DNA of 64,000 nucleotides from Selaginella moellendorffii (taxonomy: Eukaryota; Plantae; Lycopodiophyta): contig NW_003314294.1 of the NCBI RefSeq assembly GCF_000143415.4, positions 1,552,014-1,616,013 of the forward strand, read 5' to 3'. A program made the translations under genes and the position numbers. Below are positions 5,477-29,400 of this stretch, piece by piece. How positions within the stretch are numbered: position 1 is the first letter of the stretch; every line of letters starts with the position of its first letter. Under the pieces are notes generated by a model that saw only the letters and a list, made by a program, of their open reading frames with translations, was not told the DNA's origin and made no database searches.

Positions 5477-5589
5477 TCGAGATTGAGAATTTGTGAAGGG
5501 AGATTTGCAAATTGAAGAAGGAAAACAAGAGGAGGAAGAAAGAAGCTGAGGCAGCTAAACCAGCTAAGTCTAAGCAACCGAATTCATCT

Positions 5590-5613
5590 AAGCTCTATTT
5601 CGTTAAAGTGGGA
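5590..5613 (+). repeat. Left terminal inverted repeat
   Basis: AAGCTCTATTTCGTTAAAGTGGGA. Confidence 0.9.
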
Positions 5614-6725
5614 TTTATTCAGTAAAATGGGACTAGGTACAAATTTTCAAGTATTTGAAAATGACGTGAAATTATATGTTTTTTGTCCAGGGGCTAGACA
5701 TATCTGGGGCATGGTGACTAGCGTGGTGACTTTATGTCCAGACTGAGTCCATCTGGTTGTATAATAAATCTCATTGTCAAGGTGAACAAGCCGAATCTGA
5801 AGCTAAAGAAGAGCGATGGCATGCGCGCACACACTATTTGTTTGTTCATTGAGCGTGTGGTGAGCTTTCCAAGATGAACGTCATTCCTATTAGCCAGACA
5901 TATCACTTAATGGTGAGAACATTTAGATATTATTCAATGTTATCTTTTTCTAACGAATCTAATTGTGAAGGTGTAGCAAGAGGCATTGCTAGTCTGGAGA
6001 AGTCATTTAACTCATTTGACCACCCTTAGTGTATTTTCATGAAACTAAATAACATTCATATTATTAAGGAATTTCTCTAGTACCTTTTTTTTACGACATA
6101 GAGGCTTGCATTTCTTTCAAAGGTGATTTAGTAAAAGGCCCGAGGGCACATGCCATTCTATTTCTCAGACCGGTATTAAGATATACTAGTGCAAAGGGAA
6201 AAAGGTATTTGGTGATCAAGTAAATGGCATGAGGGCACACGCCATTATAAGCCTAAGCGCTAGTGGACACCTCCTTTTTGGTACTCTCAGCGGTACTATC
6301 ATCCTTCTCCAGGTCAGTTGTTTTGCTTTGGATTGTTGTCTCTGACGTTACTGGGGCGTTCTCGATAGTTGTTAATATTGCCGTTTGTTCAGAAAAATGA
6401 TCACCTGGAGTATAGTACGGGGAGTTTGGAAGACTTATATATTCTACATCTTCACCTATCTCCTTCTCCGTCTCCTTTTCTGCCTCACTTACAGATTTTG
6501 TGCTTGCCATGAGAACGCTCTTCACCCTAAAATATGGAGTTCGTTGTGTTATAAAAGGAAACCAACACACACGCTGCAAGGGAATGATGGTACATAAAGT
6601 ACGTAAGCCCACAATATGGGTTTATGTGCCATTAATATGGGCCACACGCCATATTATTAGATTTATGCACGTGTGATTGGTAAATGCATATGTCACATCA
6701 TCTTTGTTTTACCTCACACACTATA

Positions 6726-9700
6726 TCAGGCCTCCTCTGATTCAGATTCGGATTGTTCACCTTGAAATAAAATACATTAGAAACTTAGTAAAGGAATATT
6801 AATGAATCTCACCTTGAACCCAGGTTATGAATGCTCTTGCTGCATCTCTTGCATGGTCTGGCAAGGTGATGGTGGCACTCTGCTTCCGCATCCAACCATG
6901 CACAACATTATCCACCGATATGCTCATGCTGGGATCCCTTGGATTCAGCACCCATCTCTTTTCTAGGCAATCCTTCGTATATCCGGAACTTGGCTTGAAC
7001 CACTCCACAGTTACATTGAAGGAGTTAGTTTCCGCGTCCTCCTCTGCATCAGTGATGCAGCGCCCCACCCATATCATTTGTTTTTTATTACTGGGTCTGA
7101 CAAGCACGACCATTCCTTTGCAGACCTGTACTGGATTGAATGCTGAATTCGGCTTCTTGTTCCTCGGCCCACAATAGTGATCCTCAACATCGTTATCTGT
7201 CACTGCATTTCCAGACGACATTGTTCCGCTACTATCTGGTGCTTTGGGTTCTGGCCAAAAGGACTCTTCCAATTCTTCATATACAACCGGCCCATTTTGG
7301 ATAGCAGATATAATCTTCTCCCAGTATTTGAGCAAAGGCTTGCACCTCTGAAAATAGGATTCTCCACCAAACACCAACCCCCTCTTCCAGAAGGCAATAT
7401 GCTGTCTAATCCCGGCCACTATACTTTCCTGGTCTTTGAGTCCATCTAGGTGCATCGGCCGTGGGGAACCCTGAGGAATCATAGGTTCCCCAGTTATGGG
7501 ATCTCTCTTGAAGAGTTCAATGCCGTCCACTGGCAGCCACACTGTGTCCCATTCTCTCATCTTGTACCTCATCACTGGAGCACCGTCACACATGCTGAAA
7601 TGAAACTGAAGAGGCTTGGAGTGGCCAATCAGCGTTTCGGATCCGTCCCTGATGTAGCCTCTTACAAACCCCTTAAAGTCTGGAACCTCTGTCAGAAGTG
7701 CAGCTTCAACAGTGCCTTTGATGCAATTTTGGAATTCATCGTAGAGTTGTGGGAGGGTGAGGACATTGGATCGCCGGAGGGACTCTGCCAGGTGACTGAA
7801 CATGGCATCGACGTCTTCATGAGTGTGCCCAACCATGAGAAAGCCAAGTGTAACCGTTTCAAATATGTCTTTGGCAACAAGCATCGCCAAGTATGCGAAG
7901 ACGTACATGTTTTTGTTCTCACTGCCAGCATTGTCTGTTTGGAGCAGAAGATGGGGTGGAAGGCCACATCGGCCGCAAGAACTTCCTTGAGATTCTGCTT
8001 CGTTTGGATGAGGCTGTGCATTCACCGGGCGACCAGCCTCGTCGGAATGGCATGAGGCCTCACATGATAACCCTACAATCTGACGACCAACATATTCACT
8101 GGGATGGCATGGGGCCCCACGCGATACTGCAAGCCTTTGCTCCTCCTCCAGCTGAACCCTGTATGGGGTTCGATCGACAAGGGCCTTATGCAAGGGTTGG
8201 CCGTTCAGCTTAGTCTGCGCACTTTGCAGAGACCTTAAGTGTTTTGCTAGGGACGCAATCATCATGTTTGCACCCCCGCCACCCCATAGAGGTACAAAGA
8301 AGTTCCCATAGTTCTGGGCACCATGCCCATGAGCGATTATGCCAAACAGAGACACAGGCAGCTGCATGGATGAAGAGATTGCCTTGGGGGCAGGATTGAG
8401 TTGAGGTAAGCACGTCTTTTTCTGGTCCATTTTGTCATGGATGATGCAGAGGTAAGAGTCAGGTCTCTCCATGGAGAGAATCCTGTTATGATAATATGCA
8501 GTCCTGCAGCTTCTCTGCTCGATGTTGTGGTCGAGCCGCCTTTTAACCAACGTCTCTCGCTCTTGAGCGCTGCAAGAATTCTTCGACAAAGCCATTTTGA
8601 TAGCAGTGCACTCGTCACACTTTGAAAAGCTGGAGTACTTTCCTATACTCACATCCCTGAACCTGTTGCTCCACAATCTACTAAATCTAGATTGGCTCAG
8701 CTTCCTGTAGCCATTACTCTGGAGTTCCCGATTCACATCTTCCAATATGGCCCCCTTGGTATACATGGAAGGGAGAACTCGTTGGGTGTCTCGTGTTCCA
8801 TCTTCCAAGAAGCGGGTTTTATGTGGTTGCTGCTCGCTACATATCTCGACAAACCTCTTGAAGATTGCCTCTCCATATACAACATGACCCCTGGTTTTGT
8901 GCGTACCGTCGTTCCCATGGACTGCCTGTTGAACCCTTTGTTCCTCGAACTCAGTTTTGATTCTGTAGAATGTGGTTCGAGGGACTCCATAAATGATTCT
9001 CCATGCCTTCATGCAGACCAAACCCCTCTGGAAGACCATGCCCCCCACCTGATGTTCTGAAGCATCAACAGATGACCGTAATGCCTCATACACAAAATTG
9101 CGAGCTGCCTTCCAGGACAATGTCTTGTATGTTGCTCTCTCCTCTTCAATAGCATCCCAATCAGCATGTTGACAGCAGCTCCTCTTGCAACAAGCAACTG
9201 TCGAGACCATTCGAACCTCCATCGCCATTTTCTGCCTTTTCAGTTCGTTGCTCAGATCCCTTTGGCTGTGCTTTAGGAAGGTGTACTTTCTTTTCCCATG
9301 AAGAGATGTTTTGTCATCAGTTGTAGTGGTGTTTGATTGTGAATCCTTCACATTCTCAAACACTAAGTGCCTCAATTTCCACCGCACAATGCTTCCAATA
9401 GTCAGACTGTTTTCTTCTGTGTCAACAACCTCTAAAATCGCAACTCCAATATCATCCCAGCCCAATTCTTGATTAGCAACCGCATCTCTTGGATCGACAA
9501 CTGTGGCTAAGCCCTCAGCTACCACCTCCCCCTCGGGGTTGTTTAGAAACACCTTCGCCTGAATCCATGTAGCACGGTTCTTAAGATCCACGGAGGGAAC
9601 ATGCGTCGCACTTGTGCTGTCCCCAGCATCTGCTTTCTTCTGAAGATTTTTCAAGGCAACAACAACATTTACCCCGACGACCATCTCTCCTCGTTCAACA

Positions 9701-9867
9701 ACGACCACATTCCCATCGAAGACAGTCTCTACTAATACAGCAACATTGCCTTCCCCAAGCCTTTGATAGTGTATAACAAAGTTCCGATCCATAGACACAA
9801 GGGTCCCTTTTGCAACTCTCTTCCCACCATTCAAAATGTAAACCTTTTCCCCAACCCTGAAGGCCAT
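6726..9867 (-). CDS. Sola-like DDD transposase (~1030 aa; exons 9867-6813 and 6760-6726)
   Basis: Uninterrupted 1022-aa ORF with CCKRSC, HTH-like VCMKAWRIIYGVPRTTFYR, KCDEC and the acidic triad IIHDKMD / LQTDNAGSENKN / FLMVGHTHEDVDAMFS; a 52-nt GT-AG intron (6812-6761) adds GEQSESESEEA*. Confidence 0.8.
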
Positions 9868-10639
9868 TCTAAAAGTGCAGAAAAGAAGTTAAGACCATAT
9901 AAAAAATGATTGGATTATTCAAACATGCTATTAACACCCACGTGAAATTTTGCATTCACAAAATTGGCATGAGGCCTCATGCCATCTTGATATAGACACC
10001 ACTGCAGGCAAGTAAAAACATACATGACAATATGCTAGCCATGAAATTGCAAGGGCCCAAAATGGCATGAGGCCTCATGCCATTTCTAAATGTGGTCCTA
10101 AGCCATTCCATGGTGAACATACCAGGAAGCACAAGTGCCGAATATCAAGAGGAAGCGGTAGCCACACCAAAGACAGTGCCGCTCGCAACACCGCAACTGC
10201 TCGTAGCGCCGCTCGCACAAACTGCCACTCGCATAAACTGCCGCTCGCAATGGCACTCGCAATGCCGCAACCGCTCGTAGACGCATAAACCACAGCCCAC
10301 AACGCCGCTTACACAAGCAGCGCTCACTGCGCTCAGCGGAACCAAGAACACGGCGCACAAAAATGGTAGACCTAGGAATGAGTTCGAGAATTCAAAAATA
10401 ACACACGCTTGAATGTCACATCAAATCCTCTGACAAACCAGATCTTATGACTCCTCTGACAAATTTCAAACTGAGTAGCTTCTAGACTTTGCTGTCGGAG
10501 GTTGAACTTTGTCACATCATGTCCTTGCCTCGATCCAGCTGTGCCATGTCAGTGATTCGAACTTTGCCATGCCATGTCAGCGATCCGCGCCAAGATTATT
10601 CGCCGTGTAAAGGAATAATTATGCTGTGTGTGTACGTCC

Positions 10640-12000
10640 ATTTATGGCAATATAAGGCCACACGCCATTCAAAGAATAATGCTAGTCGAGCATTTTTTGG
10701 TGCATTTTTGGGTTCAAAATTGCATGAGCCCACACGCTATAAAGTTTACCTGTACCAAAAATAGAAACAGCTTTATTTACTTGGGAATTTAAGTGGTTGA
10801 GGCATTTTTAAACTTACAAACACATGCCCTACTTACATTCCTTTGGTTGCTTAAAATTCAAAAATATTATAAACCTTTCTTTTTGCATTTTCAATGTTTT
10901 CAATTATGGTTTTTGATTTTCGCAGGACCAGCCTAGTAATCTATTTGCATCCCGTCATGTTTATAGCTAGCTTTCGTTTGTCCCCTTCGCTAGCCTGAGA
11001 TACATCTACTCGGCATCTGCCTCTTACAGCATTTGCCCAGAAAGGGTATCTTTCTTCACGCAGCATTTGCCACATGTTTAGGGTTTAGGGTTTAGGGTTT
11101 AGGGTTTAGCAATTCAGTAGCTTGATAAACATGCAAATACAGAACTTGATGCAAAATCCTTTGATATGTCACAATGCCCCTAGGACCATAAACACATTTC
11201 AATAGAGAGGGTCCTTTCATTTCATAACTCCTTACGTAGATCTTGGTGAAACCAGAGTTAGTGAAGTTAGTTTTTTGTGATCCCGCATCTGATTGTGATG
11301 TCCCTTTGCAGTGTCGATGGAAAGGTCAATGCACACCATACTGAAAAATCTTGGAGCAAAATAACGGTCGGATCTATGGCAAATGCCCCTGAAACAATGA
11401 AAGGCTCGTGTGGTCTCATGTGGTGTCCGATCAAGATGCTTCTTTGCAGGGTCATCAAGAAAGACATTGTATACCATTCTGTAGAATCTAGTTGCGATCT
11501 AACGGTTGGATCTCCAGAAAACTCAAAAAAATCTCGCGCGTGTCAGAATATCCTAGAAATATACTCCTATGTGCCCCTGAAAATGGCATACGGCCCCACG
11601 CCATTCAAGAGATAACGCCAGATGACGCCGAGAATTTTTTGGTGCATTTTTTGGGTTCAAAATTGCATGAGCCCACACGCTATAAAGTTTATCTTTCCCA
11701 AATAGAGAAAGTTTATCTATGTCATGTGAGGTAGTTACAGTCCTTTGTGCTCGGCATCTGCCTCTTGCAGCATTTGCACTGAAAGGGAATTTTTCTCCAT
11801 TCAGCATTTGGCCCTGAAAATGGCATGCGCCCACACGCCATTCAAGGAATAACGCCACAGGACGCCTGGATTTTAAAATGTTTAGGGTTTTTTGGGTTTT
11901 TTCAAAATATTTTGGGTCCAACATTTTTTGGGTTTCTTTGGTTCAAAATTGCATGAGCCCACACGCTATAATATTGATTTGAGAGAAAAATAGAAACAGA
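10640..12000 (+). repeat. Internal direct repeats in the divergent promoter region
   Basis: Unit CACGCCATTCAA..AATAA...TTTTTGG...GGTTCAAAATTGCATGAGCCCACACGCTATAA at ~10660-10770, ~11597-11710 and ~11834-12000; a second pair at 11009-11072 / 11750-11812. Confidence 0.8.
11077..11109 (+). repeat. Interstitial telomere tract (TTTAGGG)4+
   Basis: Four perfect TTTAGGG units plus TTTAG. Confidence 0.95.
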
Positions 12001-12661
12001 TAGAATTTCTTTATTTAGCTGAACATCTGCCATTTTTGGAAATACAAGATGCTTTGGAATATCCAATCATGCATGGTATAAATATAGCGAGGGTATTAAA
12101 TGATATCCCAATCATGATCTTTCTTTTGGATTTCGCGTGCATGCAGTCCGAGGAATGATGACGTTGCGGATTTCTTTTGGATTTTGCGTGCTTGCATGCG
12201 CACGGCAATCCAGAAATTAATGGTGGCGCCCAAGTCCGAGGAATGATGACGTGGCGGGATTACCAACCGTTGTGACATTTCGCGCGTGTGAGGTTAGGTT
12301 TTGCATTTTGCTTCGTACTCGCGCTCCCGCTCGCATCGCGCTCCCACTCGCGATCACGCTCACTTCTCTACAGGTTTCTCGTGTGCATCGGCGTCCACTC
12401 GCGCTTGCATCACACTCGCGCTTGCATCGCGCTCGTGTGCATCGGCGTCCACTTCAAGACACACCCAGTTTGTAACTTCGTCGCCAACTCCGCCGCCCAC
12501 TCCGCCACCCACACGCAGCCCACTTGGCGTCCCGGGAGATTTCAGCGCCACTCTCCAACTGTAAGTGGCAGAGTAGCCTTGCTGCTACGATCCGCTGCAC
12601 ACACAGTGCACATTCGCCAGCGAGTCCGGCCTCGATTGTCACGGCCTCCATTCGGCTTCAA

Positions 12662-15600
12662 ATGGTAAGTCTTTTAGGCCAAGTAGAAAATGGCATGAGG
12701 CCACATGCCATTCAGTAGCAACATTGGCATGCACCGATTGGGCTCTCGAGTGCAGTCCGGTTACAGATGGCGTGTAGCCTCACGCCATCTTAGGATGCAG
12801 CCTTAAGACATCTGATGCAGTGGTGAATGGCGTGTGGCCTCACGTTATTTCCAGCTGCTAGCTTTTCATCTGTCAGCTCTAATTGTTGTGCATTTCTGAA
12901 CAGGCGAGGAATTGCATTCTTCTTCCAGCCACTGTCAATGTGGATGCAGAGAAGGGGGAGGAACTCACCAGTTGGACTTTCGGGATGGAAGGCGAGGATC
13001 TGATGCTGTACAACATAGATGGTGGGAGAAAAGAATGCATGGGGATCCTCATCCAAGTGACAGACACTCCATGCAGTTCCATGCAAGAATATGGACTGGC
13101 ACTTGTGGTAGAGACAGCATCCGCCTTCAAGATCCACCTTGCACATCCTAGCGGCTTCCCGGAGGGGGGCAGCGGCTATGAGGAATTCCTAGAGGGAGCT
13201 AGGGAGAGGTTGTCCAGGAGGCCCACAATTTCAAAGACGCTGCGGGTCTATGAAGATCACATAGAATCCACGGACCTCACCTACGGCGATGTTCAAAAAC
13301 TATATTCCAACATTGAGCCGTTGAGAGTGCCTCCAGTTTGCGAAGCGAAGGGGAAGGGGGTCGATCTGGAAACTACCCCGAAGCTGAAAAGGGTGGTCAA
13401 GCTCAAGCCGACGTCCGACTCTGCTGCTCCAAAAAAGAAGCTACTCGGTGATGCCATTGCCTCGGGTTCGAACACTACACCCACCAAAAAGAAGAGCCGC
13501 AAAGAGCAGAAAGAGCAAGAAGAGGCAGCAAAAATCGTCGCAGATAATAGTACTTGTTACTATTCCAACAAAGTATATACAATCGACGTGAGCCGTATCG
13601 ACATCCAAAGCAAATACAACCACAGGCTAGTATCTAATGAGTGGGTGGAGAAACTGAAGCAGAAGATGCTGGCAAGTCCAGTAACACCCGACATCGCAGA
13701 CGTGATCCCCTACTACCGAACAATGAAGGGCGAGATGAGGTTTCCAGACTTGATCAATAGGAAGGTGTTGGACGATCAGAACATCCGGTTCTATGCCGTC
13801 TCCGGGCAGCATTCTAGCTTGGCGATGCAAGAGATAGTTCTGGATATTATGGTGGGTGAGGAGGTGAAGAAAGTCTTCAAGACAAGAGTTGTCCGCCTGA
13901 TAAAAGGCAACTCGCCCCTCCGATCTATCATATCCATCTCCCACGCGCAGAATGTCAAGCAAGAAACATGCTACAAATCGGTTCTGCACGAGACATTGGC
14001 ACGAACACGGAAGCTTTGGGTTCAACTGAAGAAGCCACAAAAACCAGGACAAGGACGTGCACTAGCAACTAGCGCCTGGCAGGTAAGCCTCGTTGCATGT
14101 GGCATAGCATGTGGCCTCACGCCATTTCCATTGCAGGAATTCTCGAGTCTTCTCTCGAAAACACTGGGGGTCAATGACACACTCAGCATCCATAACATTC
14201 TACTCGCGACAAAAGTTGTTTTTGACAAATGGGTAGATGTGCTGAGGAGGTACCATGACGGGGAGTTGCTAAACTCAATGGGTGTGGAGGACGGCCGGAA
14301 GCCCAATGATTTGAAGCTCAATGCCTTGCGTTTCTCGCGGTCTCTAGACGACGATGACCTTCTGACAGTGGCTAATGCTCTTCTACGTGGTGAGGTAGTC
14401 TTCAACAAGACCAAAATGACTCCCGGCCATATTGTGACATACGAGGACTTGTGCACGACTCTGAGAGCTCGTGCGCTATTGAAGGATTGGATCTTCGAGC
14501 AAGTGGCCGTGGAGAGGGTGAGCATCGACACCACGCAAGAGATGATGGAAGAGCTGGACTTGTCAAATGAAGACATCGACGAGTACGTGAAGGGGGCCCC
14601 CAAGTTCATCGATCTGCTGCGGGATGCCACGAAAAGTAAAGCTGAGAAGTTGGATCAATATCCAAATTTCATTAAGAGGGATGTCGACCGCCGGCTTCAG
14701 AAACAGCTCGACCCCGCAGCAGAGGCCTATCGAGAACCTTACCGGGTATACGTGAATTCGGATGAGGATCAAAGGTGGAGGAGCATCGTTTCCCGCGGAG
14801 ATGAGCAGGTCAAGAGCATCTTTTGTGTGATGGACTTCACAAACGAAGAGATCACTCATGCAGACGAAGTCAGCTCCATCATTGACTTAATGGTGGGACT
14901 TGCGGAGGTGGAATCTTCAGTCCACTATATGATCTATGACTCCGAATCCTATCATAAGTTCTGGAAGGCCTTGAACGAGGTGAAGGCTCGGTTGAAAGGC
15001 AAGGAGATGCGGGAGATCCATGGGATAATGGCTAAGAAGAAGATACCGACGAATGTCCGCATCTTCACACTCGCCCTTGTTATTGGTCCTGCAGCAGAGT
15101 GGGACTGGAGTGACTTCCCAGCTTCGTTCGACAAGGCCGATCGAATTGATCTGAGGGAGGTCAATTTACCCGTGCCTGAGGAACTGAAAATGGCTATGGA
15201 GCTTTCGAATCCAAAGAAAGCTCCAGGTGCAGCATGGGAAATGCTCAGCTGGGTCTTCAACGCAATAGCGGGTGACACCAAGGGCAAATGTGTTGTCGAG
15301 TACAACTGGGGCGGACTATTCTTTCGAGCCGCACTACTCAAGGGTGTCCCGTGTGTTGCGGTGACAAACTCCATTGAAGAGGTGACTTCAATGGAGCATA
15401 TAATTACAGTTGCCAAAGAAAAACAGTATCTTCTCTGCGAACCTGGTGCGTACACACTTTAAGTTTAAATGTTATCTCACAAGCTTTGTATGCAGGAGCG
15501 TGGCCACCCCCAAATGCTGAAACGGCGTTAACAGCTACTGATGTTAGGCCGAGCTCACAACCTGCACAAGGTAAGGTCACGTGAGGCCTCACGCCATTTT

Positions 15601-18237
15601 GATTATAGATCGTTGTGAATATTCAGACACGAGGACTGAAAAGCGCACTGGTGGCGCGTCGAAGAAGGACAAACAGACAAGCAATAAGAAAAAAGGAGGT
15701 ACAAATTATATTTGCAATGGCGTGTGGTCTCATGCCATTCCTTGCAGGAGACACTTCTTCAAAGGCAAAACAGGCAAGCACCAGCCAAGCTCAAACTGAC
15801 AGTGGTCATAAAAAGCGAAAGCACGTTGGACAGTCGTCGGGATCAGAGGCGTTTGATTTGAAAAGGAAGAAGGGCAACGAAAAGATGATAGGTAATGCCT
15901 CGCGGTTATGGCGTGTGTGCTCATGCCATTCATTGCAGATCAAGGGCTGAGTGAAAGGAGCCAGTCACCACCTCCTGACTCAGATTCCTATGGCGGACTC
16001 CCCTTCCCCAATCTCAATGGAGAGGTACAATGGATGAGGGATGCTTTTCAAGTCAGGGCCACGTTTTTCTCATCTCGTCGTCTTCGAAGGGTGCAAGAAC
16101 ATGCAGAAACCATGTTAAGACAGTCGGGTGAGGATACGGTCCTAGGTCAAGCACTGAAACAGGCTATGGATGTCTTGTATTTTGAGATGGAGACTCGGCC
16201 AGATGATTTTCCCAAGATGGTCCTGGAAAAACAAGCCATCCAGCCTGAGCAGCCTATGGAAGAAATGCAAGAGGGGGATGAGGAGCCAGAGAAAGATAAT
16301 GAGCAAGAAGAGCAGGACGAAGAGGAGGACAAAGAAGAGGAGGACGAAGAAGAGGAGGACGAAGAGGACTTGGATGGTCCTCACAATGGTGACGATCACA
16401 ATAACGATGATGACGATGATGACGACGATGGCCAGCCTGAGGTGGCCAAAGAGCAGCGGAGGAAGGTCATACAAGACAAACCATCAGGTAAATAATAGTA
16501 CATCCATTCCTAACCTTTTACCATTTCTAACATTGTCCATATAGGTCGCAGAAGAAATGGTAAGTAGAGATTATTCAGTTGAATTAAGATACAAACTCTA
16601 GCCTTTAGTGTCGAGGAAGGATAGTGCCAAGCAAGGGTCGAAACGTATGTCCAATCCTTCAGAATCAGCAGTGCGCTCAATAGCAGTTGATGGTAAATAC
16701 AGTATAGTCGATTCAATGTGCTAATGAGTTTGTTTTTAGTAGCCAGTAGGGAGGATACCATCTCAATCGAAGGGAGATATTTGGACATGCATATGGATCC
16801 GCCAGTGGACTCTACTTGCCTGCAAGAGTCATCAGAGCTGGTGGAGGCTACTATCCATATCAACGCCAAGCAAGCTGACCACGCTCCACTTGATGCTGCC
16901 CATACCACTGAGTCAATCTTGTCCACGTATCCAATTGACGGTGACCAGGCGCCATTGGACCCGCATAAGGCCGCCCCAGCCGCCGAGCCGGTCGTATCCT
17001 CATTTCCAACGGACTCAACGTGTGCCCAATCGTCTGACTACGCGCCGTTGGAACCTCCCTACACCGCCCCTGCTGCCTGTTCGGTCATGTCCACTTTGCC
17101 AACGGAGGCACCAGCTGAAATGGCGTGTGATCACACGCCATCGGAACCACCCCATGCCACTGTTGAGCCAGTTGTACCAGAGTCTACAGCTGAAATGGCA
17201 TGTGCCCACACGCCATCGGATGCGATTGACCCCACATTGCAGAGGAGAGTATTTCCGCCCTTCACGTTTCCTCGACCAAAACCCTTTGAACGACCATCGG
17301 GAGCACCATTCGCTAATATTGTAGATGGTAAAATTGACTTGTACCATGTTTTATGCTGACGCATTTCATTTCAGAGTCACGGCAAAAGTACTGTATCGTT
17401 TTTGATCTGAACGGTGTCCTTTTCTCCCATGAGCGTGGCTCGTCCTCGAATGTCATTGCACCCTCCAAAGCCTGTGGTCGCAAGTTGGTCAAAAGAGACA
17501 GATTCACATTAATCACACGGGAGAAACTACGGGATCTAATAATGACCATGCGACACTTAAAACAGAGGGCCGGGTTCAATTTGCAATTGGGAGTTTGGAC
17601 ATCCATGATGCGCCACAATGCATTAACATTGCTACAGATGATGCACGATCAGACGCGAGTAATATTACCATTTGACTTTCTCCTAACGCAGGAGGATTGC
17701 TTGACTATGGTCCATGTGAGGGGTAGCAAACCCATCTTCATCAAGCCAGAGGCTATAGTGATGAACCAGACTGCTAGGTCAAGTGAAATCCTCATCATCG
17801 ATGACTCGCCGATTAAAACTGCAGCGAACACGCACACATATGCAGTGCACCCCATCTCTTGCAGTATGGAAACTAGGGAGAAGAAACCGTATGTTCTGGG
17901 GGACCTTGCAAAACGGCTTGAAGCGATGGTGATAGAGAACCGGCCAGTCCAGGAGGTGGCTGCAGAAATCAACCAAATGGCAGATGGAACGGTATATCAG
18001 AAGCCATTTGATCGGACAGACACCAGTCATCATTTATGGCATGTATATTGTCTAGCCAAGCACTATCCGCATCTCCATAATCTGCTCAACCGGATGGGTT
18101 CTTCGACCACTGAACATGAGCGTGGACGTATTAGAGAAGAGATGGCATTACTATTGGGTTTAAATCCTGATAGTGTGGAGAGTGATGAAATTCCAAGATT
18201 ATTGTATAGGCGTTGGAGGCAAAAAATAACAGTCTGA
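12662..18237 (+). CDS. 11-exon accessory gene (~1626 aa): ParB/Srx-like + degenerate DNA-MTase-like + basic/acidic/Pro-rich linker + HAD(FCP1/NIF)-like domain
   Basis: GT-AG introns 12665-12903, 14083-14136, 15446-15495, 15571-15626, 15699-15747, 15892-15938, 16488-16544, 16560-16608, 16693-16739, 17328-17374 join five separate listed ORFs and short linking exons into one stop-free frame (4881 nt). Motifs: FYAVSGQHSSLA..SHAQN; IVFDLNGVLF, LGVWTS, ILIIDDSP. Confidence 0.75.
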
Positions 18238-18655
18238 GATGGCATGTATTTATTTAAAAATGTAACTTATTATGGCATGGGGTTCCATGCCATTGTATTA
18301 ATATTAAAAGACAATTCTTTGAGAGGATTTGCATTATACTAGAAGTGTTACAGCATGTTATTGGAAGTCTACGAAGTTGTTTTATTAATAAGGGGAAAGT
18401 AAAGATTGAATGGGGACTTGGGCTCCACCTAGACTCGGAGCAACTAAGCCAATATTAAAAGGATGGAAAGAAATTGGACGACGATGACAAGGAGAAGAGA
18501 GAGGTGAAGCAGTGGCAGGGGGAGGAGAAGTGATTGAGTAGACATTTCCTTGTTTAAAATAAAATGGCATGTGCCTCAATGCAGTTGAATTTTGTTATAT
18601 TTATATACTATATAAAGGTTTGGAAACCTTATTTTACAAGTGGGATAATGACAAT

Positions 18656-18679
18656 TCCCACTTTAACGAAATAAAGCTT
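18656..18679 (-). repeat. Right terminal inverted repeat
   Basis: TCCCACTTTAACGAAATAAAGCTT, the reverse complement of the left TIR with one mismatch. Confidence 0.9.
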
Positions 18680-18683
18680 ATCT

Positions 18684-21600
18684 TCAAGTTTCGAGGACGA
18701 TAAAGTTTTACAACCGCCCCCGGTTGCACGAGTTTCAAAGTTTAAGCCCCCGAAACCACCCAATTTCAGAGGCATGCGGGACTATTAGGTTTTGGAAGAC
18801 TGGGTCTACGATATGGAAAACTATTTCATAGCGGTAAATGTAGATGATCGTATAAAAGTTGCATGCGTGCAATCCTTTCTCACCGATCATGCCAAAACTT
18901 GGTGGCTCCAAGTGTGTGCTGAAAAAGGGCAGACTCGAAGCTGGACCAAGATGTGGTCTCGTATCCGTAAGGAATACTTGCCAGATGATCTTGGTCTGAG
19001 ACTTCGCGCAAAGCTGCGGCGGTTAAAGTAGCGAGGGGACCTCATGCATTACATTAATGCGTTTGCTCAAAAGCGCATTATGATTGCAAATATAAGTGAT
19101 GAAGATGCTCGAAGTTATTTCTTGGAAGGTTTAAGTTCACTTTCTTAGAATGAGATTTTGAAGTTTAAGCCGAAGATGTATTTGGAGTGTAAGGAGGCAG
19201 TGCAGCAAGTTGCCTTTAGTCACTCGCTCATGGAACAATATCAGCAATCGTATGCTTGTAACTCGAATAAGAAAAGGAATTCTGGGAATAAACAAGGTGA
19301 TCGGAAACAAAGGGTGGAAGGCAGGTTCTGCTTGGAGGCTCACAAGCAATGGTTAACAAACTTGGTGGTGGTTGGAGACCACCAGTAACTTCTTCTGGCC
19401 CTAGGCCCTCTGTTCCTCCTCCTGGTGGGTACAAGCAGTAGCAACTTGCAAAACCTACTCCTAGCGGAACAAGTAGTGTGGGTCATTGCTTCCATTGTGG
19501 AGAGTCAGGACATAGGTCCTTGGAATGTCCCAACAAGCATAAGACAAGGTCTCGGGTTAATGTCATGAGGGAAGACGGTGGTGGTGAAGCTAAAAGGGTT
19601 TACGAGTTGGTCAATGCAAACTATGAGGAAGAGGAGGTAAATTACTTTCGTTGCTTTCCTCAAGCTTTTCTCGCAATCAATGCAAACACTGATCCGTTGA
19701 TATATCTGGTAGGCTTTGTCCGTGGACACTGAATCCGAGTGATGATTGACACAGGAGCTACGCACAACGTGGTATCCGAAGACTTAGTTAAGTTGTTAGG
19801 ATTGAATACTGAGCAAATGTCACCTATGCACTTCTGGTTTGCGGAAGGTGGGCAAGTAACCAGAAAGTTTGTGAGTGATGTTCCAATAAAAATATCCAAG
19901 TGGAAAGAAAGAGTGGACTTGGTAGTGTTGAAGATACCAGATTTTTAAATGGTGTTTGGTATAGACTACTTCAACAAATATATAAAAGGGATTTATGGTG
20001 CTGGACAAAGTCGTATCACATTAAAGTCAGAAGGACATCCCGATGTGTCTTTTCAGTTGCAAAAGCGTTCCTCAAAGGATTGGGATGCTAAGTTTTTGAC
20101 TACAAGGGCCGCTCAAAAAGCAGCTAAGAAGGGATGTTAGACCTTTTGGGTTCAAGTGATGGAAGTTAAGGGTATTGGTGACTCAGTGATGGGGTTGATC
20201 TTATACCAAAGATATTAGAGTTGTTGGCGCGGAATTAGGATATCTTCCCGAAGAATTTGCCACTAGGGCTACCTCTTAGCCGTGAGGTTGATCATCAGAT
20301 TGAGGTTATTCCGGGTTCTAAACCACCTACGAAAGCTCTATATCGGTTGAACATTAAGGAGATGGCTGAACTCAAGAAGCAACTCACGAAGCTTCTAACC
20401 AAGCAAGTCACTTTATGGAGTGCCAGTCCTTTTTGTTATGAAAAAGGATGGAACCATGAGGATGTGTATCGACTATTGGGCACTTAACAAGATCACAGTC
20501 AAAAACAATTATCCTTTGGTTCACATTGATGACTTGTTTAACCAACTCTTAAAGGCTAAGTATTTTACGTGACTTGATTTGCAGTTTGGGTATCATCAGA
20601 TATGGGTAGCAGATCAGGATGTGGAGAAAACAACCTTTAAGACTCAGTATGGATCTTATGAGTTCCTTGTTATGCCATTTAGGTTATGCAATGCTCCGGC
20701 AATGTTCAGCACTATGATGGATAGAATATTCGGAGATTATTTGGACACATTTGTTGTCCTATATATCGACGATGTTCTAGTCTTCAGCGAAATGTTGGAG
20801 GATCATTTGAAACACTTGGAGCTAGTGTTTCAGAAGTTGTGTGAACACAAACTATATGCTAAGAGAAGTAAATGCACTTTTGGACAATTGCGGGTAAACT
20901 TTCTCAAACATATAGTTGGTGGTTGCGTAATTGAGGTCAATCCAAAGAAGGTGGAAGTAGTGAAGTCTTGGGAAGTCCCGACCACTGTATCAAATGTTCG
21001 TTCCTTTCTCGGTTTGGCGGGATACTATTGCAAGTTTGTCCACAATTTTGCAAGAATTGCTCTTCCGTTAACTGAGATAATGAAGAGTAGTATTCCGTTT
21101 CATTGGACACCAGCTTGTCAACATGCTTTTGTACGGTTGAAGGAGATCTTGACTACAGTTCCTGTTCTCAGAATCCCAGATCTTGATAAACCCCTCAAAG
21201 TGCATTGTGATGCATCTGACTATCCTATTGGTGCCGTGTTGCAGCAAGATTGTGACAAAGCAGTTGGTGTTACGCTAAGGCGACATGGTTGTCCCGTTGT
21301 GTTCTATTCCAAAAAATTGGATGAAACTCAACGAAGATGGCCAACGCATGAGAAAGAGATGTTTGCTATAGTGTCGGCCCTGGAACACTAGAGACACTAC
21401 TTGGATGGACATACCAAGGTTTATATAAATAGTAACACACTAAGCTACTTTGCTACGCAGCCTAAACTTATGCCGAAGCAGTCTCGTTGGCAAGAGAAGC
21501 TTGCCAGATATGATATTGAAATCATATATAAACTTGGTAAAAACAATATTGTCCCAGATGCATTGAGTCATCAGGCTCAATTTCGGGCAATATTGGTAAT

Positions 21601-22926
21601 CAGTTTGGACTAGTTAGAGGATGTTCCGGCTTTGTATGGAAGTGATCCGTTAGCGAAGGCAATCTTACACTGTGCGGAGTTGTCGAAGTAGAACCCTAGT
21701 AGCGAAGCAGTGAAAGTTGCTAGTCGAACCAATGTGAAGCTTCACTACTTGGTTTGGGATGGGCTTATATTCTATAAGCAAGAACGATTGTATCTTCCCT
21801 CTAAGGATCTGCAACATATGTTTCTGCGGAAACATCATGATGTTCCAGCAGCGGGACATGGTGGACAACGAAAGACTCTAGCTTCATTGAAAAGGGATTT
21901 TTTCTGGTTTGGTATGGAAGGTGATGTAGCGGATTATGTCCGTTCCTACCCTATATGCCAGCAATGTAAGCGCAGAACTGAGAAGCAGGTTGGAAAGTTG
22001 CAGTGCATTCCAGCACCGGTATGGCCATTTCAGAGTGTGACACTTGATTTCGTCACTTGTTTGCCGATGTCGAAGGGTTATGATACTTTGATGGTGGTTG
22101 TGGATCAGTTGTCAAAGATTGCACACTTCATTCCAACTGTGGGAATAGTAAATGCGAAACAAGCAGCAAAGCTCTTTTTCTATGAAGTAGTGTGGGTTCG
22201 TGGTCTTCCTGAAGAGATGATCTCAGATAGAGATTCAAGGTTTATGAGGAAGTTTTGGGGCATACTGTTCCAGCTGTTTGGTACCAAGTTGAAGTTTAGT
22301 ATAGCTTATTATCCTCAAACTGATGGGCAGACCGAACGCATGAATGCTCAAGTTGAGGATTATCTGCGGTACTATGTCACGGCGGACCAATGTGACTGGG
22401 TTGAGCATTTAGACACAGCAGAAATTTGTTATAACAACACATTTCACAATGCTATAGGCTGTTCTTCATGGGAGATATTGCAAGGGAATGCTCGTGGGTT
22501 TCCTCAACAAATTGTTGTACCAAAACAAATGTCAAAAGTGTTGGTCCTGGTTGTTGAGACTTATGTGGAGCAGCTACGCCAAGGTTGGTCTAGGGATACT
22601 GAGGCGATGGGCAAAACTCAGGATAGGTATCGACATGATAAGGTCCCATGTCCATGATGTGTTTCATGTCAGTTTACTGGCACCATATCATGTTGATGCA
22701 GATCGCTCTATGGACATTCGTCCCTCTCCAGAAGTTGTCAATGGTGACATGGAGTATGAGGTCGACGTGATTCTCTTGTCTCGCAAAGCTCGTGGTGGTC
22801 GTTCCAAGGAATATCTAGTTAAGTGGAAAGGTTAACCAACTTGTGAATCAACTTGGGAACCTCTTAGGAATCTTACACATGCTCGTGAGCTTGTCACAGA
22901 GTATGAGAATAGTAATAAAGACTAAC
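18684..22926 (+). pseudogene. Gypsy gag-pol remainder (gag, zinc knuckle, protease, RT, RNase H, integrase, chromodomain)
   Basis: CFHCGESGHRSLEC; IDTGATHN; LVMPF.LCNAP, YIDDVLVFS; CDASDY; GHGG..KT, PQTDGQTERMN; EYEVDVIL...YLVKWKG; many premature stops and frameshifts. Confidence 0.92.
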
Positions 22927-25900
22927 TTTTGTAAACTTTGTAATAAATCTTGCAAATTAATAAAGTAATATATTTCTATATATCAAAGTGTCGTTCCTCT
23001 CGTTCATTAGTACTTGGGTCAGTTTTGGCAGGCTGACTTCGGCACTTCGGTGCATGGGTTCAATCCATAACCATGGGGATAACTATTATAGACTAATCAC
23101 AAGTCCCCACCTCTCTCTCAATGACTCATTTTTGCAAAAGGTGTGGTTGTGTAAACAACTTAATTTGCCAGTTTATAATAGTTGTCTAAATCTTCCCGAC
23201 GGGGTTGATTTATTGCTCAGGGGAAGTTGGGCCTCTAGCCTTCTCCCTATGTCCCTGCAGGCAGGATGTATCATTCCTTTGTAAGCCGAGTGGTATTTAG
23301 AGCAACAAGGGTGGCTAACTCTGTTGGTCATTTCCTTGTCGGTAATGGCCAAAGTGTGTCTGAGTCTTAACATCTTTAGACGTAGAGGAGAGGTCGTTCC
23401 ATAACTCATTTAAGTTGATGCGTTTCCCACATAGTATGCTTTCCATTAACTTTCAAAGTTGTTTCCTTGACGGTTTGCCAGTCCTTATGGACACTCTTTC
23501 CTTACTGCCATGACGGCAAAAGGTCGGTACAGCTGGTTCCCTTTATTGTTCCCACTTGAGCTAGTTGAGAAACTGGTCAATGACCTTGTACTTAAATCGA
23601 ATAAACATAAGGTAGGAACCCTATGTGTTTCTTGCTGAGCATACTCGGCCTAGTTTGAGAAATTCCTGTCATTGGCTTGCACTTGTTAGTATCAAGAACC
23701 CCCGCGTATTGAGACTAGTCCCTCAATATTGCTGAATGATAGCTTATCGTGTCTGCCAAACACCCTCGCTATCATGCCCTTAGTGTTGGTCTCATTTTGG
23801 TCCCAAATGCTAATTATGGAAAGTGTCTAGATTTGCTCATTTGGCATATCTACGGAATGTAGAAATTGGCCTGAACACAATGGTGTTCGTCCGTGTCCAA
23901 ATTTGCAATCTAGCGCCATTCCATATTTAGTAAGTTTCGAGCTTGTCCCAAAGACTAACTCCTAATACTAAGGGAGGCTTGGGGTGAAAGCCCATGTGCC
24001 AAACTCCGTCTGATACCATTTTGTGGAGGTGCTGGATACGGGGAGCTGGTGCTCGTGGGATTGTACCAGACCCTCGTTTCGTAGTGCAACGGGCTTAGAG
24101 TTCGGCTCCAAATTCATGTGCACTACAGTATAGCTAGTAACTACCAATGTTTCCAGCACAAATTTGCAAAGGTGGCTATTTCTGTAACACAATTTTGTCA
24201 ACTAGACTAGTAATGTCAAGCTTGGAGAGTCAACTATTTGGTCAATAGGGCTATTTTTTAGGATCAACCACTTGATGACATTGCACTTACTCTAACAATT
24301 AATCTCTCCCGAGAGCAAATATTGGAGTTAGAGAGCTTCTAAAGCAGAAAAGGAAAAATGTCCCTCTATGAAGCTACACTTCAACCTCACTAGATCTTCT
24401 AAGTAGTCATTGAAAGCTTTAGCTGCACAAGAAGCAAAGTTTGCTAGTACATGTCTGAACTTAGATAGACTTCAAGAGTGGGTTGGTAGAAGGACAACAC
24501 TAGCAGCAAGGTTAGTGTTTAAGATGGTGGAAGAAGTTGTTGTTGGAACTCCTATAGAATTAAGTTATGAACCACTTGGGGACATGAGGACAGCCTATAT
24601 GAAGCATTCACAAACATTTAATGGGCCCAACATCACTTCTTCTAGCTCTCACTATCTAAGGAACATAAAATGGAGGAGATGCTAGTTGTTACACAAGTAA
24701 ATCTAGTGCTAGAGGTTGAGAAGGTTATTGCTTAGTTTCTCGTATCAACTAGTCAACTTGAAGAGTCAATACCAAGAGTAATATGTAAACAACCAAAGAG
24801 AATGACTTAAGAGACAACCCATGGGGTTCAAATATAAAAAGAAAGGGCCCATGAATAAGATGTAAACTCCTAAATTTAGACTTTCCAGAGGAAACTTAAC
24901 CCTAAATATCCCAAGACCCTTAACCAATTGAAAAAGGGGGTACACTTTTGTTCATAGGCCCTTTCCCTCTATATTTGAACTCTATGGATCATCTCTCGAG
25001 TTGTTCCCTTTGTTTTCTTATACAACAGTGCACCCTCTTTTCCAATCAGTTAAGGGTCTTGGGATAGTTTGAATAGTGTTGAGCTAAGTGACCTCCCGGG
25101 AAGTCTAAATTCAAGAGCTTACTGTAAGCAACTAAATTTTCCATTCCACTTTAGTCACTTAACCACACCTTCGACCACTTGGAGGAGTCTTAATCACAAC
25201 CTCCATAAGTCCATTTTAGGACTTGAAACTTACTAGCCCCGAGAATGGCATCCATGCCGCTCAACATTTGCACTTGGTCCAAGTGCTCCACATGTCCGAT
25301 CCCATGACCGACACTCAAAAGTACCACCGACATGGCAGCCTGTTACGCTAATGCCATGCCCAATCACCTTTGCCACACTGGTAGTCCAATACCACTTGTA
25401 TCATAGTCTTGGCTCTCCAAGACTAGGCAAACCATCCGTGAGTGGTCATCTCAGATCCAATCCTTAGCATCCTTAGGATGCCCACCGACAAGGGGAATAG
25501 CCTCCCCCAATATCCCTCTGTCAGTCCCCATTAAGTCCCTTTCTGCCCTTGGCCATGTTTGCCAACACTGCCACTAGATCGAGGCCCACAGGCCCGACCA
25601 CTAAGTCCCACGGTCCTCTGGGACTTCCTCACCTCACGACTGTGTCCTTGGTCACTACCCTAGAGGGCTACTCCTCTTCCTTTCCACAGTCTGGGCCTTT
25701 GGGACAACATTTCGGAACACCGTGGCCTTACGCGAGCCACCTGGGTACTCTCCCCGCCTTCCGCCCTTGGGTGCTCTAGCCATGGGCTTAGAGCGAGGTT
25801 CCATTGAGCCACGCCTGGTATCCAAGTAGGTAGTGCCACCCACACTTGGACTGGGAGCATCGGCCAGTCGATCTCCCGAAGGAACTAGAGCTGGCTCTTG

Positions 25901-26129
25901 AACACTTCACCAAGCTACCCCGCTTGTCGGTCCGTGTTCACTCTAGTTTTGGACTTCCCAGTGGTCAGCTCCTCACCCAACACTGGGTTTGGCCTTCCTG
26001 GGCCAAACTGGCCTTTCCTGGCCAAACTGGCTCCAACCCCCACACTCTCCCTACTATACTTTTGGCCCCCCCCCCCCCCCCTGGGGGACGATCGCTTTGG
26101 GCTTTCACCCAACTGCCTGTATTAGTATT

Positions 26130-26435
26130 TGGACTCGGACTCGGACTCGGACTCGGTCTCGGTCCCGGATTCGGACTCGGACTCGGTCTCAGTCTCGGTC
26201 TCGGTCCCGGTCCCGGTCTCGGTTCCATCTCGGACTCCATTTGGGGTCCATCTCGGACTCCATCTCGGACTCCATATCGGACTCCACTTCGGATCCATCT
26301 CGAACTCCATCTCGGACTCCATATCGGACTCCACTTCGGGTCCATCTCGGACTCCATCTCGGACTCCATATCAGACTCCACTTCGGGTCCATCTCGGACT
26401 CCATCTCGGGTCCGCCTCGGACTCCATCTCGGACA
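26130..26435. repeat. Hexamer/11-12-mer satellite inside family B LTR
   Basis: (GGACTC/GGTCTC)n followed by (CTCGGACTCCAT / CTCGGGTCCAT)n. Confidence 0.9.
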
Positions 26436-29400
26436 CTTCCATGTGTCATGTGTTGGTCCTTTCGGGTCCCTTTTTAGAGCCTCTCTTATGGCTCGCTTCG
26501 TGCTCATTCCTCGAGCACTTTGTTGGGAGTTCCACTCTCGCTCTCGACCTTTCATGTCGGAGTTTTTAGTCCAAACGTGTTACGTTTGTTTGGCTTTCGC
26601 TTCAGCCACTACCATGTGGCACCCTTCCAGCTCCACTTTGGGGCCTAGGGACTTTGTGTCTCACAACTCCACCACCCATAGACGAAGTTCGATGTCCTCA
26701 TCGAACGGTAAACCATTTTATAAAGTAACACTCGCATGTGTTACCATTTCCATCCTTGGCACCTAGCCAATATTTGTCAATGGTTTGACATTGAAGGCTC
26801 ACCATGCCTTCTCCATATTCGTCAATGGTTTGACATTGAAAGCTCACCATGCCTTTTGCATATTCCTCAATAGTTTGACACCAAAGGCTTACCATGCCTT
26901 GCCCATCCTCTAAGGAGGGTAGTCTCTCCAACTTAGAGACTGATTGGAGCACATGTAGTGGTTCTCTCCTTTTATTGGTTTAGTTCTTGCTAAACCTCTT
27001 AGAGACCCTTCTCTAAGTCAATCCCACTATTCCTTCTCGAGTAGTCTCAATTTCCATCTATTGAACGTTTGCACCTTAGAACTTTTACTCTTTTGACTTT
27101 TGGAAGTCAATTTCCCAGGTGTCTTCAACACCTTGCATTGCACAGATTGTGCAACTCCACTTCCCCATCTTAGAAAGTTCATTACTTGAGGGCACTATCA
27201 TCCTCTCTTCTATTTCGTGCCACCTTAAGCACTAAGTTCCATTTATCATACTTTGTGCTAGGGCTGTCCATGGCCCTATCATTTGGCTACCTTACCGCTC
27301 CCTCCCTTGGAGCTTCCACTTTCGCCAAATCGGAGCAATTCGGAATCCATCCTTAGAAACACACTTCCTTTCCCGCAATTTGTTAGCAGCCAACACATTA
27401 GTGTTCCTCGCCTAACTTTGTCACTTGGATTCCTTCCAAGGGATTCCACAGCCCTATCTTGGCCACTCATCTTTTGCTCCTATCCGTTGATTGTTGCACC
27501 AAGCAACATCGAATCTCTACCTCCCTCCTTGAGGTATTCTTTTGATTCCATAGCAAAGGCTCTGCTTTGCCAAGACTAGGGTGTTCACCCCTAGTAAGTC
27601 TCTTTAGCAACTTCTGCTATGGGCCCCTTCCATGGCCCAACATTGTGACCCTCCCATAGGTCCGTTCTAGAGACTACTTTCTTGAACTCACAATACTATT
27701 ATATCGTTGTAGTTCATTTCCCTTAGGTGTCTTTCCCACTTGGTCACCTTGACCAAGCCACACCATTATCAACAGTTCAAATCAACGCTTTGAACTAGGA
27801 ACCTTGTTCCTTAACCTTAAAAGGACCTTGTCCTTATTTAGCCATATGATCACCTAGTGATTTAATCTTGACACCTTAACAGGTTTGCCAATAGGTATTA
27901 GGTCTTCTAGACCCCTCTATGTTGTTGACTATGACCCTGGGGGCATCCCCCACACTTGGCGGTGCGCCCAAGCCAGCCCTTCCGGCCAAGGATCCATAGC
28001 AACTGAGATTGGCTGTCCCCATCTCATTCACCACGTCCTTGGTGCCACTCGCACCAAAGCATTCAAGTTAGATATGCCAAGCCACACTAAGCAATCTAAT
28101 CGTGCATCACGACTCCGAGGCATCCCTCGCTTGGTAGTGTGCCCAAGCCAGTCTCCACACTGAGAGTCCATGACCACCGAAAAATGAGCGTCCTCATATT
28201 CCAAACCATCACCACGCCCTAGTGAGTTGGGACTCGAGCCCAAGCACTAGAGGGTCGGGACTCGAACCCAACCTCCGTATATGCATCTACGGACGGCATC
28301 ACCCAGGATGCCTGGCGTGACTCATCATGCCGGTGCACCAACTTATACTTAAAGCGCGCTACAGATCACAGCTTAGGAACCTAGTTCCTCCACACTGCCA
28401 AGTCCTCTCACTTGACAAGTTTGTGATCATGCATGGACTCCTCCATGCTTGGCCCCATGGCCCACCTTTTTGAAGTTATCACCTTCAACTAGGGTATTTG
28501 TTCCCCCGACTTGCCAATCTCGCTTGGCAAGTCCTCCGACCACTGTAACATGGTTCCTGCATAAGCGTGAAAATCCTTGACCATCAACTTTCGTTCAAAG
28601 CCCTCTCTTTGAACACTCGGGAACTACTTCCCTAACCCTGATAGCCTTGCCTCATGGCAAGCTTCAAGACCACACTTCTGCTGCGCCACTCTAATTTCGC
28701 GCGTTTCATGAACCATTTACACTTGGCCTTTCTAAGTACTAAGCTACCTATAATCGTCTTTGGGAACCTTGAAGGAACTCTGTCCCTTAGCTTGCTAAGG
28801 CCTCCCTTTTCACAAGCTTTATATTTGCCATATAGTCTAACATGGACAATTCCATATTTTAGACTCTCCATGGTATCACGGTTGCTAGCAACAACATCCT
28901 CGAGCACCCTCTTGATTCTCCACTCCCAACTTACACAACCCCCGTTGGATATGCCCTTTGATTTCTATGGTTTAGTTCCATCCCAATACTACTTGCCTTT
29001 TGGCCCCATATGTTTCTTTTGGTTATTCTCCTCCAGACTAGGAGGATAGCTTTGCACATTTTACTATGCCTTAGCAAGTATTCTTAGGGATGAACCTACC
29101 CGATAGCCTAGGGAATGGTTCCTCAATCTTGGGCATGCTCATCTTATAATCCCACATATCGGGATTAACGTTGCTGCTTATGGACCTTTACATGCCCATC
29201 ACTAGCCTTGCCAAAATTCCATTTTTGGCTTTGTCCAATTCGGGTAAACAGTCTTCTCCTGTCTCCACAACCTTGGACATTTGGATAGCACCTGCTATCC
29301 ATCATTCGCTAGGGACTTAGTCCCTTGGGCCTTATCTATTGCCCTTGCGACACGAAACACCTTCTAGTGTTCTAGAGTGTTTGGGTGTCCCAATGATAGC

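Follow-up and report, generated by a model that had tools for sequence, protein, structure and literature searches.

The closest described counterpart of the element analysed here is Sola1-1_Ec32 of Ectocarpus, in which, according to the passages of PMC12477816 on this element, a ParB-like/N4-N6 methyltransferase gene lies opposite the transposase gene, and self-binding of the encoded protein was proposed by the authors. Element-encoded accessory factors that recognize a family-specific motif are also described, in the sections devoted to them, for the VANDAL elements of Arabidopsis, with VANC (PMC5735166, PMC10398659), and for Spm, with TnpA (bioRxiv 10.64898/2026.08.24.746577); the VANC motifs are located in introns and upstream regions (PMC5735166, same section). 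Here we analyze a 64,000-nucleotide stretch of the Selaginella moellendorffii genome (contig NW_003314294.1, positions 1,552,014 to 1,616,013; hereafter, the window), which contains a Sola1-like transposon with about 25 copies of a 22-bp palindrome. The palindromes are best explained, with a probability of roughly 0.58, as binding sites that are private to the family and serve the accessory protein encoded by the element itself, one dimer per site.

As far as these sources go, the helper gene class and the self-binding proposal are already known, and the candidate target site is new. The string 'palindrom' is absent from the main text of PMC12477816 and has a single, unrelated occurrence in its five supplements. 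A literature search found no target site for the ParB-like/methyltransferase accessory class, with the proviso that works cited for similar proteins (Petroll et al. 2025; Iyer et al. 2011) could mention sites, and excerpts of PMC4738411, PMC8885841 and PMC5751038 do not describe such a system.

The element spans positions 5590-18679 of the window (13,090 bp) and is delimited by 24-bp terminal inverted repeats (TIRs), with 23 of 24 positions matching, and by a 4-bp target site duplication (TSD):

5586..5589, + strand: left TSD, ATCT, the same four bases as at 18680-18683
5590..5613, + strand: left TIR, 24 bp, 23/24 match to the right TIR
18656..18679, - strand: right TIR
18680..18683, + strand: right TSD, ATCT

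The combination of a 4-bp TSD with TIRs is a Sola1 feature (PMC10741241). ATCT fits three of the four positions of the Sola1 AWWT/AWDT target preference, for what a single insertion can tell, and AAAGTGG occupies TIR positions 16-22, as in insect Sola1_NA TIRs (counted by hand), the first bases being different. The element thus appears to be a Sola1-like DNA transposon, as assigned by TSD and TIR features, not by transposase comparison. Like Sola1-1_Ec32, as far as that element is described in PMC12477816, it is a large TIR element with a 4-bp TSD and an accessory gene on the opposite strand that combines ParB-like and amino-methyltransferase domains. Compared by description, it differs in being a plant element with a 24-bp rather than a 282-bp TIR, a likely dead methyltransferase, an extra FCP1-like domain and 23-25 palindromes. 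Because 19,693 contigs of one sequencing run match ~4 kb of the element (12100-16250), the family is multi-copy. The two divergent genes were modelled as follows:

6799..9867, - strand: transposase open reading frame (ORF), 1022 amino acids, DUF7869 (Pfam PF25273, E 2.7e-42)
9869..10122, - strand: intron predicted from sequence in the 5' leader of the transposase gene, with GT...AG borders and its 3' end one base ahead of the ATG
12662..16487, + strand: modelled 5' part of the accessory gene, starting with ATG 12662, with six predicted GT-AG introns, stop-free over 1117 amino acids
12665-12903, 14083-14136, 15446-15495, 15571-15608, 15699-15747 and 15892-15938, + strand: predicted introns of the accessory gene

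A scan with ATGGCRTG-N6-CAYGCCAT identified 10 exact sites within the element, 14 sites with at most one mismatch, 19 with at most two and 23 with at most three, whereas 200 dinucleotide shuffles of the element yielded, on average, 0, 0, 0.025 and 0.245 sites, respectively, with a maximum of two at the loosest threshold. The ~51 kb outside the element contain no site with two or fewer mismatches and two sites with three (28312 and 47719), against a shuffle mean of 0.56; these two are background. A weight matrix derived from the 23 sites, which scores them at 16.4-36 bits and the best outside site at 8.8 bits (a partly circular comparison), adds two half-decayed sites, 6631 and 10647, for a total of 25. 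An earlier reading of the letters of this DNA (the original prediction) had claimed ~25 copies of the palindrome within the element and none in the remaining ~51 kb; both claims hold, and a background-level frequency is incompatible with the scan. The refined word, ATGGCRTG-WGSSCW-CAYGCCAT, is a 22-bp dyad of ~29 bits. Other spacer lengths, from 2 to 11, gave no more than three sites each, except for 11-bp-spacer artefacts of overlapping sites. The 8-bp arms and the 6-bp spacing are therefore as predicted, but the spacer is itself a part of the motif, 43 of the 46 half-sites having G at position 10. The sites, given by their start positions, are distributed as follows:

5816, 6135 and 6224, with the half-decayed 6631 (5816..6652): left subterminal palindromes, by motif scan and flank grouping
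8047 and 8104 (8047..8125; amino acids 581-607): palindromes in the transposase frame, in a hypervariable loop
9964 and 10062: palindromes in the leader intron predicted for the transposase gene
10719, 11583, 11662, 11820 and 11948, with the decayed 10647 (10647..11969): intergenic palindromes, between the two divergently oriented genes, where a two-site module occurs three times
12690, 12767 and 12827 (12690..12848): palindromes in predicted intron 1 of the accessory gene
14104, 15576, 15717 and 15908 (14104..15929): palindromes in short accessory-gene introns, one per 38-54-nt intron
17120 and 17195 (17120..17216): palindromes in a Pro/Ala-rich low-complexity open frame, in a 75-bp duplication
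18272 and 18564 (18272..18585): right subterminal palindromes

Neighbouring sites are at most 1.9 kb apart. The predicted clusters at both subtermini and in the divergent promoter region are present, whereas those described as lying inside both genes are mostly inside predicted introns. By their flanks, the 23 sites sort into 18 unrelated groups: the flanks are unique in 14 cases, and nine sites lie in four local duplications (6135/6224; 10719/11662/11948; 11583/11820; 17120/17195), so that flanks indeed differ between most copies.

The accessory-gene introns were picked by eye from the sequence. Five introns have lengths not divisible by three, and keeping any one of them leads to a stop; the sixth, of 54 nt, corresponds to an 18-amino-acid insert that is missing from spliced homologs, and its position is common to distant homologs, several of whose called ORFs end just past the junction. 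All seven sites in 12662-16490 are wholly contained in predicted introns, which account for 351 of the 3808 possible start positions (binomial 6e-8; three of the seven share one intron). In each of the four short introns (38-54 nt), 9-11 nt separate the end of the motif from the 3' splice site, and the CTCAY of the motif falls at -16 to -18; motif-free introns carry a branch-point-like word at -15 to -22. T is found at motif position 14 in all four short-intron sites versus 5 of the 19 others (p 0.014). The motif is predicted to fill the branch-point slot in these four tiny introns, an overlap that would account for its fixed distance to the acceptor.

The four short introns, with their near-constant distance from motif to 3' splice site and, in three cases, similar 3' ends, along with the nine sites in local duplications, are what could be expected of a self-copying or intron-forming module without a binding function, either Introner-like or spread by local duplication or conversion. 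Such an origin is very unlikely: the 14 sites with unique flanks do not fit it, the 54-nt intron predates the motif given that its position is shared with distant homologs, the fixed distance is explained by the branch-point slot, and the dinucleotide bias described below and the confinement of the motif to the element both need selection.

Both palindromes of the transposase frame fall in the most variable part of this protein, a loop whose length and sequence vary across the 28 aligned proteins and which moss homologs mostly lack. The concentration in introns and upstream non-coding DNA, the rarity elsewhere and the difference between families are shared with VANC motifs, as characterized in the sections cited above, and the enrichment of a family-specific motif in the non-coding parts of the element is a VANC-type feature. 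By the same sections, VANC motifs are 8-9 bp long, non-palindromic, same-oriented and tandem-amplified and TnpA motifs are terminal, unlike the sites described here. Both systems belong to other transposon superfamilies, and no homology to VANC or TnpA was seen, no search aimed at it having been made. VANDALs also differ as Mutator-type elements encoding the VANC protein, in place of the 4-bp TSD, DUF7869 transposase and ParB-fold accessory protein of this element, for which an anti-silencing role is suggested by analogy.

The dyad could, in principle, act as a hairpin in RNA or single-stranded DNA, for example, regulating the splicing of element transcripts, and the perfect dyad in nine R:Y pairs, the intronic sites and the overlap with predicted branch points are compatible with this. 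Nevertheless, a hairpin is highly improbable. None of the 22 deviant arm pairs shows a compensatory change; a Watson-Crick R:Y pair is present in only 9 of the 23 sites, with independent variation between the arms and an A:C mismatch on the + strand in 11 of the 23; the conserved G10/C13 would be unable to pair, and the inner G/C leaves a 2-nt loop. Furthermore, sites also occur in the intergenic spacer, and Rfam returned 0 matches. The lack of compensatory change and the independent variation of the R:Y pair argue for a site bound as duplex DNA by a dimer. Selection for protein binding at a two-fold symmetric site, which the original prediction preferred over plain duplication, is supported by the 18 flank groups and the avoidance of conserved coding sequence, and is further backed by the missing compensation and by the distinct palindromes of related elements (see below).

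The toggling R/Y positions had been taken for a pattern of methyl-C deamination or of methylation-tolerant binding. Among the 46 arms, the toggle dinucleotide is CA in 24, CG in 19, TG in two and CC in one, with the same counts obtained with an unbiased pattern. Neutral deamination makes TG and CA equally frequent, so that the observed ratio of 24:2 (19:2 with one site per flank group, p 2e-4) does not bear out the deamination interpretation; TG appears to be purged and CA tolerated. The toggle is filtered by selection, although the variant itself may come from deamination. A Cys/Arg difference from the protein of a sister copy coincides with one of the two TG arms, consistent with decay in this copy. 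Compared with other copies, this copy shows mainly C-to-T decay on both strands: among the 25 C/T variant positions examined out of 40, 15 changes are in a CG context, against a background of 20%. As a separate observation, CpG is enriched in the predicted 5' leader of each gene (observed/expected 1.28 at 10130-10400 and 1.26 at 12230-12660, compared with 0.69 for the element and 0.43 outside), as if unmethylated in active copies.

Three domains were recognized or approximated in the accessory gene:

13516..14082, + strand: ParB/Noc-fold domain, with the motif SGQHS and an invariant Asn (AlphaFold predicted local distance difference test score 80)
14700..15445 (approximate), + strand: amino-methyltransferase-like region, delineated via Riccia homologs with weak PF01555 matches (E 0.005-0.007)
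17375..18237, + strand: FCP1/NIF (HAD) phosphatase-like exon (PF03031, E 1e-5)

The leading structural matches of the predicted N-terminal domain are ParB, Noc and KorB: the best Foldseek match is Noc 7ol9 (E 1.7e-4), and VIA superposition of the predicted model to ParB 7bm8 gave Z 10.5 and a root-mean-square deviation (rmsd) of 2.2 over 97 residues. The domain is accordingly modelled, and predicted, to adopt the ParB/Noc fold. ParB, Noc and KorB bind palindromes as dimers, and their position as top fold matches points to a dimer-binding accessory protein. Passages of PMC11790492 on KorB support the dimer binding of palindromes and describe the regulation of promoters at a distance. The element resembles the ParB-parS, Noc-NBS and KorB-OB (RK2) systems in the predicted N-terminal fold and in the dispersal of palindromic sites over the encoding replicon. 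It departs from them in that the gene is eukaryotic and rich in introns, GQHS replaces GxxR, no helix-turn-helix was identified, a ParA partner is missing and the site is 22 bp long.

In the methyltransferase-like region, the accessory protein of the window has no Pfam match itself, and the structure model is poor. The catalytic and S-adenosylmethionine positions read MDFT and EYNWGG (in an alignment with ~22% identity), without the (D/N/S)PPY-type motif, and this part is likely inactive in this copy. By contrast, the homolog at a related locus, L081, keeps DIPY and DLFSGTG (PF01555, E 1.3e-10); with its intact-looking methyltransferase, L081 is the best candidate for testing methylation. The FCP1/NIF domain is fused to the ParB-like domain in the Riccia homologs P0115, P0117 and P0118, and the exon at 17375..18237 is likely the 3' end of the accessory gene, a fusion that in this copy rests on the homologs, the splice path through 16488-16742 being unmodelled. 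A short homolog, P0114, runs from the ParB-like stretch directly into the NIF domain, a second sign of one gene.

Homologs of the accessory protein are few. No homolog was found among 7997 candidates when the accessory ORF served as a single-sequence query; 20 representatives match this ORF, two of which (P0098 and P0101) are evident chance matches. A profile search retrieved four Riccia sorocarpa proteins, three of them with an FCP1/NIF domain and weak N6_N4_Mtase matches. Sequence searches of the PDB and, for the domains of the window, of NCBIfam gave no match, and in the viral collection none of 62 candidates was a relative of the transposase and none of 12 a relative of the accessory protein; a single-site motif match in phage L001 was dismissed as chance. 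The nearest Atlas clusters by features are the fungal DUF3723 proteins (score 0.96-0.97), which, in the absence of a Pfam PF12520 match, are a lead only; the papers listed under DUF3723 deal mostly with Starship transposons. The transposase, with the motifs HDKMD, QTDN and HTHEDVD, has 94 homologs, the named organisms including mosses, amphioxus and Ectocarpus; no literature was found under the term DUF7869. Taken with the short introns, the homologs in Riccia and mosses would by themselves suggest a non-seed land plant as the host.

Related elements were represented by the best 80 of 474 transposase loci. For the palindrome count, windows shorter than 800 bp were left out (25 upstream and 27 downstream of the 80 loci), which removed the upstream arrays of L015, L022 and L049; a first de novo count (30 of 81 loci) was discarded because it also took in telomere-like repeats and tandem repeats of long terminal repeat (LTR) type. 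At least three palindrome copies were found in 15 of 55 upstream windows (8 of 15 sequence clusters) and 4 of 53 downstream windows, compared with 4 of 59 distal control windows (one of five clusters, with one AT-rich repeat). The motif of the window itself yields, across the 80 loci, only single or paired 3-mismatch matches, at chance level. The relatives' own palindromes are tandem in some loci and dispersed with unique flanks in others, and the palindrome words differ by clade of the transposase tree. A ParB-like gene is detectable at two of the 80 loci, L072 and L081, in both cases head-to-head with the transposase gene and with a palindrome cluster in between. Because these two loci are separated from the element of the window by a well-supported split (95/94), the head-to-head arrangement would seem to be old, as the tree and gene order suggest.

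Individual loci illustrate the variety of these sites. L081 (734-9353), 8.6 kb in length, combines a perfect inverted repeat of 26 bp with a transposase gene and a divergent ParB-like gene, between which lie nine palindromes. L002 (525-1585) has eight dispersed GGCCATATGGCC-centred palindromes upstream of the transposase, with letters that resemble the motif of the window. L022 (51-352, 674, 2836-2977) has a different palindrome in a tandem array, with further occurrences directly preceding an acceptor-like AG and following a donor-like GT, an echo of the intronic placement.

We propose that the accessory protein, made from the divergent gene, binds the palindromes as a dimer. With the spacing of sites observed here, it would coat both promoters, the introns and the ends of the element, and such a coat would mark the element as self. 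Coating would likely keep the element transcribable or tune the divergent promoters, in the manner of VANC on VANDAL elements and of KorB on RK2; CA half-sites would keep the sites free of CpG methylation. Apart from the predicted fold, this reading draws on the dyad behaviour of the sites and the clade-specific palindromes of related elements; on the placement of sites in introns and in a variable loop, which matches that of VANC motifs; on the gene pairs with an intervening palindrome cluster at L072 and L081; on the same gene pair in Sola1-1_Ec32, for which self-binding was proposed; and on the excess of CA over TG, although this copy otherwise shows C-to-T decay on both strands. Since the methyltransferase looks dead and the arginine needed for CTP (cytidine triphosphate) binding looks lost, the effector would more likely be occupancy itself or the FCP1-like domain rather than DNA methylation or a CTP-gated clamp.

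Several observations weigh against binding by the accessory protein. The arginine of the ParB GxxR motif is replaced by S or T (GQHS/GQHT) in all 14 aligned sequences, and L081 has GSHS, the correspondence being motif-based; in the KorB passages of PMC11790492, R117A abolishes activity. The CTP dependence implied by the original prediction is thus doubtful, as are, judging from these residues, CTP-gated sliding and methylation in this copy. The helical region 184-320 following the ParB-like domain aligns to ParB chains only at an rmsd of 10-15, and no helix-turn-helix was identified there. In four contig runs over 12100-16250, no splice joint was detected at the predicted introns; these are contigs, silent on expression. 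This copy has evidently been methylated, and none of the 25 examined C/T variant positions is in the motif, where ~1 would be expected by chance. The distal control comprises five clusters only, and the anti-silencing role, likewise autoregulation, is suggested by analogy.

The most substantial objection comes from the relatives, as 17 of the 19 loci with a proximal palindrome cluster lack a detectable accessory gene, including L012, L048, L054, L055 and L061, which have 8-10 kb of upstream sequence. Many of the clustered loci without this gene are short or have decayed, and where the gene does occur, it is close to the limit of detection (E 1e-5 at L081). Clusters without an accessory gene fit a transposase-bound site as well. 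The palindromes could be subterminal-type repeats that have spread inward and are bound by the transposase for synapsis or for autoregulation or self-activation; they flank the transposase gene on both sides at L061 and L022, and the N-terminal domain of the transposase has a weak TNP1/EnSpm match (E 0.036). An inverted-repeat pair at L061 was not accepted as a sure TIR, being AT-rich. Transposase binding, the main alternative, is nevertheless less likely. Transposase sites usually resemble or lie in the TIR, and the motif is absent from the 24-bp TIR, as the original prediction had noted in calling the two unrelated. Furthermore, 16 of the 23 sites are more than 4 kb from the left end and more than 1.4 kb from the right end, many of them in introns of the other gene, and relatives without an accessory gene could be served in trans. 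In Arabidopsis, according to the parts of bioRxiv 10.64898/2026.08.24.746577 on AtMu1, the transposase of this element binds and activates its own copies, with the peaks located at the TIRs.

Recruitment of a host transcription factor, for example in the germ line, is the least plausible alternative. The half-sites contain CATG/CGTG cores, which we take to be similar to plant bHLH, bZIP and B3 sites, and the sites cluster near both promoters. However, a 22-bp dyad of ~29 bits with no copy in the 51 kb outside the element and with clade-specific words is better explained by a co-evolving, element-encoded reader. Even taken together, neutral copying, a hairpin and a host factor are unlikely to account for the palindromes.

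A more far-reaching version of the accessory-protein reading is tentative, with the odds against it. It would hold that the ParB-parS logic was rebuilt in a plant transposon lineage, such that a ParB-fold dimer loads at the 22-bp palindromes, spreads over 13 kb and delivers a pseudo-methyltransferase and an FCP1-like phosphatase against silencing; the sites in tiny introns would double as branch points, the system would be independent of VANC and TnpA, and reader and site would co-diverge across Sola1-like families. As it stands, the palindrome is the first candidate target for the ParB-like class of transposon helpers and makes the published self-binding proposal directly testable; the relatives supply several different site-and-protein pairs, so that specificity swaps would be a direct test. 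If binding by the accessory protein is confirmed, the sequence-specific self-recognition of transposons, as with VANC and TnpA, would extend to a prokaryote-derived fold and provide a compact reader-and-site pair for plants as well as a lead for the fungal DUF3723 proteins.

The insertion interrupts a retrotransposon gag-like frame, which is in phase on both flanks; these flanks (5485-5589 and 18684-22657) belong to a decayed Ty3/Gypsy-type retrotransposon with matches to gag, reverse transcriptase, RNase H and integrase. Within the element, a 122-amino-acid, acidic, Ser/Thr-rich frame with no Pfam match (6253-6621, - strand) lies downstream of the transposase gene, with motif copies at 6224 and 6631 on its two sides. 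In run X8, which represents another copy of the element, the accessory gene has in-frame insertions of 15 and 12 bases at 15273 and 15540, respectively. Elsewhere in the window, 25100-32600, 42100-42550 and 57000-64000 harbor a set of four to five mutually related, LTR-like repeats, which contain 12- and 23-bp tandem arrays and are unrelated to the motif.

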